Positions 11-509 of a DNA stretch of 1,122 bases are shown in pieces. The stretch comes from Naegleria gruberi (Eukaryota). The notes under the pieces are model-generated. The model was not told the origin of the DNA. It ran no database searches and saw nothing but the letters and a program-made list of their open reading frames with translations. The stretch's first letter is position 1, and the number at the start of each line of letters is the position of its first letter. The DNA lies in NCBI GenBank assembly GCA_000004985.1, contig GG739546.1; one strand, given 5' to 3'. The position numbers and the translations under genes are program-made.

Positions 11-165
11 TTGAAATATTCTTTTCTTAGTGAACTTTGCTTGCATCATAATTATTAAGTGAATTGTTTCAAGTAGATGGAAAGTGTTCTAAAATTGCTG
101 TAGATGGTAACATTCCGTTACAGCATAGTTAAATTCTAAGAAATGATTGAGATTTGTGATTTTTT
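11..165. repeat. Copy 1 of a diverged direct repeat of about 155 bp (partner at 326-481). It may extend beyond the left edge of the window.
   Basis: Hand alignment of 11-165 against 326-481 gives about 122 matches in 157 columns (about 78%) with 3 single-base indels. Perfect blocks: 67-83 = 382-398 (tttcaagtagatggaaa, 17/17); 129-137 = 444-452 (ttaaattct); 142-153 = 457-468 (aatgattgagat, 12/12). Confidence 0.8.
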
Positions 166-325
166 CACAACTGTTATCTTTTAAACAATGGTTGTCATCC
201 AACCCGATGTAAAAACGACTTGAAATTGTTTCAAATGAACGTGGAGTGGCTCAAACCCGTTGCTTCTTTTCAAAAAAGAGACTTATCCAACCTTTTGAAT
301 GAGAATGTATTAACTATACAACAAA
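166..325. repeat. Degenerate third copy of the same unit lying between the two good copies. Positions 11-481 thus look like a 3-monomer tandem array with a period of about 155-160 bp.
   Basis: Anchor matches to copy 1 at consistent offsets of about 151-162 bp: tctttt (20-25 vs 177-182); ttgcatca vs ttgtcatc (41-48 vs 192-199); gaattgtttcaa vs gaaattgtttcaa (61-72 vs 222-234, with a 10-bp exact core attgtttcaa); tctaaaattgct vs ctcaaacccgttgct (about 89-99 vs about 250-264). Overall identity is low, roughly 50-55% by eye. Confidence 0.3.
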
Positions 326-447
326 CTGAAATTTATTTTTTCTTACTGAACTTTTCTTACTTCACAATTATTAAGGAATTTTTTCAAGTAGATGGAAAAT
401 GTTCCAAACTCGATGGAAATGGTGGCAGTCCTTTAAAGTGTACTTAA
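220..447 (+). CDS. Hypothetical 75-codon ORF, probably spurious or a relic. It starts at TTG; the first ATG is at 235. Its C-terminal 26 codons are translated from repeat copy 2.
   Basis: Only ORF in the six-frame track. There is no GGAGG-like ribosome-binding site upstream of either 220 or 235. The middle of the peptide is low-complexity and hydrophobic (EIYFFLLNFSYFTII), as expected from AT-rich non-coding DNA. The homologous frame in copy 1 is closed by a TAA at 49-51 and a TAA at 130-132. Confidence 0.12.
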   Translation: MKLFQMNVEWLKPVASFQKRDLSNLLNENVLTIQQTEIYFFLLNFSYFTIIKEFFQVDGKCSKLDGNGGSPLKCT

Positions 448-481
448 ATTCTCAATAATGATTGAGATCAGTCGATTTTGG
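326..481. repeat. Copy 2 of the diverged direct repeat of about 155 bp (partner at 11-165).
   Basis: Same alignment as for copy 1. The offset between copies is 315-316 bp. Both copies open with (c/t)tgaaat(a/t)tt and close with gattgagat...gatttt. Confidence 0.8.
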
Positions 482-494
482 GTTTGGGTTTGGG
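477..494. repeat. Perfect (TTTGGG)3 hexamer microsatellite, telomere-like and G-rich. With flanks it reads ttttgggtttgggtttgggtt (476-496).
   Basis: Read directly: tttggg tttggg tttggg at 477-494. It lies immediately after the end of repeat copy 2. Confidence 0.7.
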
Positions 495-509
495 TTAGAC
501 GAAAACCCA
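491..509. other. Short hairpin-capable inverted repeat: tgggtt (491-496), 7-nt loop agacgaa, aaccca (504-509).
   Basis: The reverse complement of aaccca is tgggtt, giving a 6-bp stem. There is no trailing T-run, so it is not a classic intrinsic terminator. Confidence 0.3.

Follow-up and report, generated by a model that had tools for sequence, protein, structure and literature searches.

Miniature LTR elements known as TRIMs are shorter than 1,000 bp, with some as short as 292 bp, and their target duplications measure 4–6 bp (PMC4717578). The working criteria for these elements are two terminal direct repeats, a short internal region, a length below 1,500 bp and no retroelement proteins (PMC4717578). 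The locus described in this article is similar to a TRIM in that terminal direct repeats of about 154 bp, both beginning with TG, surround a 161-bp non-coding core and no proteins are encoded, and it is different in that it has no demonstrable primer-binding site or polypurine tract, no CA end common to the two repeats and no clear target duplication. Compared to an intact LTR element, the identity between the repeats is low (~79%).

SINEs and other short interspersed repeats likewise consist of a unit of ~150 bp with discrete common ends and a variable simple-sequence 3' tail, as does the unit in question, whereas a head derived from tRNA, 7SL or 5S RNA, an A or B box, and significant target duplications are all absent here. 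Satellite DNA with nucleosome-length monomers agrees with this locus in the length of the unit (~155 bp) and in the 315-bp spacing, but here there are two copies that are not arranged head to tail, the sequence between them is unrelated, and the alternate unit does not recur. Bacterial intergenic repeats of similar size include the ~155-bp bcr1 of the Bacillus cereus group as well as Correia and BOX elements. These are multi-copy elements which, like the unit described here, are about 150 bp long and non-coding; however, our unit has neither terminal inverted repeats nor a stable hairpin, and its core 23-mer is found in 0 of 185,579 species genomes.

By the window we mean the whole stretch of DNA that was analyzed, which is 1122 bp long and has a GC content of 29%. 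We confirm that it contains two direct repeats that are 78–80% alike, 315 bp apart and non-coding. As to what they are, we give about an even chance to the view that the copies are the remains, under neutral decay, of a small non-coding element, either mobile or duplicated, that resides in AT-rich non-coding DNA of a probably eukaryotic genome.

The repeat pair and its boundaries

In a global alignment of positions 11–165 with 326–481, identical nucleotides occupy 123 of the 157 columns (78.3%) and there are three 1-bp gaps. The score of this alignment is 83, compared to a mean of −21 and a standard deviation of 5.8 for shuffled sequences (z = 18). Self-BLASTN aligns 12–163 with 327–479 at 79.9% identity over 154 columns with 3 gaps (E = 2e-32), and in a repeat search of the window the pair comes out as two blocks, one spaced by 315 and the other by 316. 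Judged by the global alignment and self-BLASTN, the original prediction was right, to within 1–2 bases, in its coordinates, its identity, its number of indels and its spacing, and its description of the repeats as dominating the 5' half is fair. The same prediction was to be given up if there was no signal at an offset of about 315 or if the identity was at the level of chance. Without gaps, the 5' half matches itself at a rate of 0.63 at lag 315, the background being 0.29 (z = 8.9), and the score of the alignment with 78.3% identity stands 18 standard deviations above the shuffles.

Copy 1 (~154 bp) extends over positions 12–165, as delineated by self-BLASTN and the global alignment, and copy 2 (~155 bp) over positions 327–481, as delineated by the same two methods and the repeat search. 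Both are recorded on the plus strand; this orientation is an arbitrary choice, and no strand-specific features were found. They are separated by a 161-bp spacer (166–326) that is unrelated to the copies (z = 0.8–1.6 versus either copy), so that the block from 12 to 481 consists of 154 + 161 + 155 bp, about 470 bp in total. The unit has the ends 5' TGAAAT ... GATTTT 3'. Each copy starts with TGAAAT; copy 1 ends in a run of six T, and the 3' end of copy 2 passes into a (TTTGGG)3.3 microsatellite (477–496, plus strand) that Tandem Repeats Finder reports with period 6 and 100% matches. This microsatellite lies exactly at the 3' boundary of copy 2, its counterpart in copy 1 is TTTTTT, and it could be either an expanded tail of the element or an unrelated microsatellite. 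TTTGGG is known as a ciliate (Paramecium-type) telomere variant.

The homology between the copies begins at the same TG (12–13 and 327–328) and stops at nearly the same point, to within 2 bases (163–165 versus 479–481). Outside these limits the likeness is lost on both sides: bases 1–11 and 316–326 are identical at only 3 of 11 positions, and 166–200 bears no resemblance to 482–516. The sharp ends shared by the copies, combined with unrelated flanks on both sides, indicate that we are dealing with a discrete unit and not with a larger segmental or tandem duplication. It also follows from the 3/11 match that the 315-bp period, looked for as a spacer–copy junction, stops upstream of copy 1. Within the first 11 bases, the suggestion that an array runs on upstream finds no support.

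The spacer contains a hairpin, GGTTG-TCATC-CAACC (190–204), which on the minus strand was marked as resembling a terminator. The plus-strand sequence of this hairpin, TGGTTGTCATCC (190–201), begins with TGG, and this TGG, 24 nt past the end of copy 1, is the nearest one downstream of that copy.

The two copies differ at a proportion p = 0.196 of sites, which corresponds to a Jukes-Cantor distance of 0.227 and bears out the earlier view of the pair as old diverged duplicates instead of a recent pair. Among the substitutions, transitions number 14 and transversions 17. Columns without identity are distributed evenly over the unit (chi-square 5.4, 5 df), and identity extends over at most 17 consecutive nucleotides, where chance would give a mean of 16.4; the pattern of differences marks no conserved functional core within the unit. 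The differences look like what is expected from neutral decay, with no sign of constraint.

Copy number and periodicity within the window

Neither a third copy nor an array was found inside the window by Tandem Repeats Finder, self-BLASTN or alignments of window segments. In particular, Tandem Repeats Finder detects no tandem array in the window whose period is close to 155 or 315; its yield is limited to the (TTTGGG)3.3 microsatellite at 477–496 and two short AT-rich arrays. When all ~155-bp segments of the window are aligned with each other, the known pair alone stands out. We considered the spacer (166–326) as a diverged monomer and rejected it, the global and local alignment scores being about 1 standard deviation from those of shuffled sequences against either copy. 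The spacer and the copies have one word in common, an 11-mer found at 62–72 and 224–234 (E = 3.8). The spacer also has no similarity to 482–640, that is, it is not repeated after copy 2, and the 640 bp downstream of copy 2 are unrelated to the copies.

The segment 793–847 (56 bp) matches the middle of copy 2 (366–421) at 70% identity with a BLAST E-value of 5e-4. The z-score of this match is 6 when evaluated with mononucleotide shuffles and 0.7 when evaluated with dinucleotide shuffles. The segment fails as a third copy on the dinucleotide shuffles and on its lack of likeness to copy 1, and we attribute the match to chance; alternatively, it could be a strongly degraded third fragment. Just before this match, positions 791–799 read TGAAATATT, which is identical to the opening 9-mer of copy 1.

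Within positions 541–1030, AT-rich patches of the TATATA type recur about every 150 bp (near 548, 699, 857 and 1003). Two weak pairs of segments are found in the same region, 705–747 with 858–900 (74%, E = 2e-4) and 541–587 with 692–738 (66%), and in the 3' half of the window matches at lag 304 are diffusely enriched (z = 4.8). An array with a periodicity of ~152/304 bp was considered for the 3' half and rejected: the signal comes from AT-rich patches at 50–60% identity, and the segments concerned cannot be aligned. The ~150-bp recurrence of the patches is probably compositional.

On this evidence, the earlier interpretation of the pair as satellite or higher-order tandem-repeat DNA finds no support within the window, given that there is no array, that the spacer is unrelated to the copies and that it is not repeated after copy 2. 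That interpretation also took the nucleosome- and di-nucleosome-sized lengths as a sign of satellite DNA, and length by itself is no evidence.

Coding, RNA and regulatory tests

The window contains no open reading frame longer than 75 aa, and stops interrupt every frame. A word-indexed search found no homologue of the 75-aa open reading frame at 220–447, and nine open reading frames from the window had 0 occurrences in a collection of 15 billion proteins. Similarly, the window sequence has no counterpart among 5.8 billion proteins, a pseudo-protein made by joining all 41 stop-free segments gave no match, and Pfam returned nothing at E-values up to 10. An exhaustive HMMER search with the 220–447 reading frame gave two nominal matches (E = 3.5e-7 and 5.3e-6), one to an Ig-like repeat protein and the other to an ankyrin-repeat protein; the two targets are unrelated to each other and highly repetitive. 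The matches fall on different parts of the query, and single stretches score 25–29 bits with BLASTP. We rejected the coding of an ankyrin-like or Ig-like repeat, as the HMMER E-values are made up of weak matches summed over dozens of repeats in the targets, and we note that library-wide E-values against repetitive proteins call for caution in general.

Mismatches between the copies in the indel-free core are distributed over the three codon positions as 7/5/7, that is, with no periodicity. The alternative genetic codes that we tried were the ciliate code, chosen because TTTGGG resembles the Paramecium telomere variant, and codes with TGA=Trp; they were rejected in view of a longest TGA-only-stop frame of 179 codons, which is under the shuffle mean of 208.

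In the window, all Rfam matches stay below the thresholds of their families. The best match is the plant H/ACA snoRNA snoR137 (RF01433), with 22.9 bits compared to a gathering score of 44 (E = 0.23). This match, at 19–130, is weak, full-length and restricted to copy 1; copy 2, which has kept neither the second hairpin nor the terminal box, gives none. ARAGORN detects no tRNA or tmRNA. The fold z-scores for both copies on both strands (−0.99, 0.05, −1.32 and −0.73) are no better than those of shuffles, and the two copies fold into different structures. The RNAalifold consensus amounts to −12.05 kcal/mol with 1 compensatory pair on the plus strand and −2 kcal/mol with 0 pairs on the minus strand, and there are no terminator-like sites inside the copies.

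Just 3' of copy 2, a CCAAT word (528–532) and TATAAATA (567–574) occur 39 bp apart, and about 30 bp past the latter there is an initiator-like TCATATC (600–606). The spacing of these words recalls a eukaryotic pol II promoter, and such words are frequent in AT-rich DNA. No open reading frame follows them; the ATG at 672 yields 9 codons.

Searches with the window found no match in phage and plasmid records (distant mode), nor did complete E. coli genomes give one (near mode). We also scanned sequence collections for two exact patterns, the 23-mer core common to both copies and a GC-rich 20-mer at 514–533. Each had 0 occurrences in 185,579 species-representative prokaryotic (GTDB) genomes, 0 in JGI metagenome contigs and 0 in IMG/VR. 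Combined with 1.1 kb that contain no open reading frame above 75 aa and with the GC content of 29%, these absences favor a non-coding region of a probably eukaryotic genome as the source. The original prediction offered a duplicated prokaryotic ncRNA or regulatory module as the alternative to satellite DNA. That idea lacks support as well: no Rfam family reaches threshold, the folds are equal to those of shuffles with hardly any covariation, the copies are devoid of terminators, and the sequence is absent from GTDB genomes, plasmids, phages and metagenomes. The pair does not now encode a protein or an RNA, nor does it have a demonstrable role in regulation.

Origin of the pair

A mobile element is the origin that we favor because the unit is discrete, exists in two copies in the same orientation and surrounds an unrelated core; we infer both this origin and an LTR-type mechanism. 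The most economical origin would be one event giving rise to both copies at once. Such an event could have been the reverse transcription and subsequent integration of a TRIM-like miniature LTR retroelement of ~470 bp (12–481), in which case the two copies would be the terminal direct repeats made at that integration, and they would have gained their ~20% substitutions and three 1-bp indels afterwards. The layout fits a TRIM, with 154 + 161 + 155 bp, no open reading frame longer than 75 aa and no Pfam match.

The short sequence signals of LTR elements are a different matter. A 3' CA is not common to the copies, since CA follows copy 1 (166–167) and is absent after copy 2, and the copies end in T-runs. 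The test for a primer-binding site beside copy 1 covered the initiator-Met tRNA, whose site TGGTATCAGAGC is matched at best at 7/12 or 6/12 positions near the junctions. The sole primer-binding-site-like word near the junction of copy 1 is TGGTTGTCATCC, the hairpin sequence described above, and no tRNA was matched to it. A polypurine tract is missing ahead of copy 2, where the last 15 nt, AACTATACAACAAAC, are 60% purine with no run, and likewise in the reverse orientation (67% purine, no run). The candidate target duplications, GTTT (7–10 and 482–485) and TTTTG (9–13 and 476–480), consist of T-rich sequence of low complexity and overlap the ends of the repeats. At ~20% divergence these short signals may have decayed. 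We do not class the locus as a TRIM; most plausibly, it arose like one. That the block 12–481 belongs to an uncatalogued family of miniature LTR-type elements of a probably eukaryotic genome, whose priming and integration would require neither a canonical initiator-Met site nor a polypurine tract, appears to us a doubtful proposition.

The TRIM-like origin has a close second: a short non-autonomous interspersed element, SINE-like or of another type, may have inserted twice, independently, 160 bp apart and in the same orientation, with each copy retaining the whole unit and a variable simple-sequence 3' tail. The sharp ends common to the copies would be expected of such an element, the 3' ends differ in the simple tail only (T6 versus T4(GGGTTT)n), and ~20% divergence is typical among members of an old family. 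Furthermore, TATACAACAAAC, the 12 bases before copy 2, agrees at 8/12 positions with TAGACGAAAACC, which follows the microsatellite, and could represent a decayed target duplication; this agreement, however, is not significant, with an estimated p of ~0.1–0.2 once the choice of offset is allowed for. Neither ARAGORN nor Rfam at E-values up to 10 revealed a tRNA-, 7SL- or 5S-like head, and scans for A and B boxes gave 0 matches inside either copy. Two insertions would also demand the coincidence of the same family landing in the same orientation within 500 bp, and we consider this origin possible but on the unlikely side. Somewhat less credit still is due to a plain local duplication by slippage, unequal exchange or repair synthesis without any mobile element, in the form of either a ~154-bp segment copied 161 bp downstream or a tandem pair split later by a 161-bp insertion. 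Only two copies are visible, nothing specific to mobile elements has been demonstrated, and the differences look neutral, all of which would suit a local duplication. On the other hand, if a 315-bp block had been duplicated in tandem, another spacer would follow copy 2, where there is none, and the copying of one discrete unit across an unrelated spacer requires two events.

The explanations that invoke a larger array or a function fare worse. The window as the edge of a satellite or higher-order array, with ~155-bp monomers and a 315-bp dimer, would agree with the lengths of unit and period and with the position of copy 1, 11 bp from the window edge with the upstream sequence beyond view, and it could draw on the lag-304 excess (z = 4.8) and the weak AT-rich pairs 151–153 bp apart in the 3' half. 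It is nevertheless highly improbable: Tandem Repeats Finder sees no array, neither the spacer nor any of the remaining 155-bp segments is related to the copies or to another segment, bases 1–11 match 316–326 at 3/11 positions, and the lag-304 signal is traced to TATATA-type patches of 50–60% identity. Equally remote is a duplicated functional module, whether a small RNA gene (e.g., an H/ACA snoRNA), a small-peptide open reading frame or a cis-regulatory block. In its favor are the weak full-length match of copy 1 to snoR137, the peptide FQVDGKCSK that both copies encode in one frame followed by a common stop, and the CCAAT (528–532) and TATAAATA (567–574) words near the downstream side of copy 2. 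Against this, snoR137 reaches half of its gathering score in copy 1 and is unmatched in copy 2, the fold z-scores range from −1.3 to 0, and the consensus fold of −12 or −2 kcal/mol comes with one compensatory pair. Codon-position bias, a Pfam match and a real homologue are all absent, and conserved positions are no more clustered along the unit than expected by chance. The functional-module explanation is thereby weakly refuted.

The window holds no hidden gene, RNA or defence-type array, and the repeat pair is real but ordinary: old, decaying, two-copy and non-coding. A repeat length of 155 bp and a spacing of 315 bp alone are no basis for labeling a sequence as satellite or nucleosome-related. 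If the mobile-element origin is true, the locus would be just another ancient, dead member of a small repeat family, and its use would at most lie in the annotation of the source genome.
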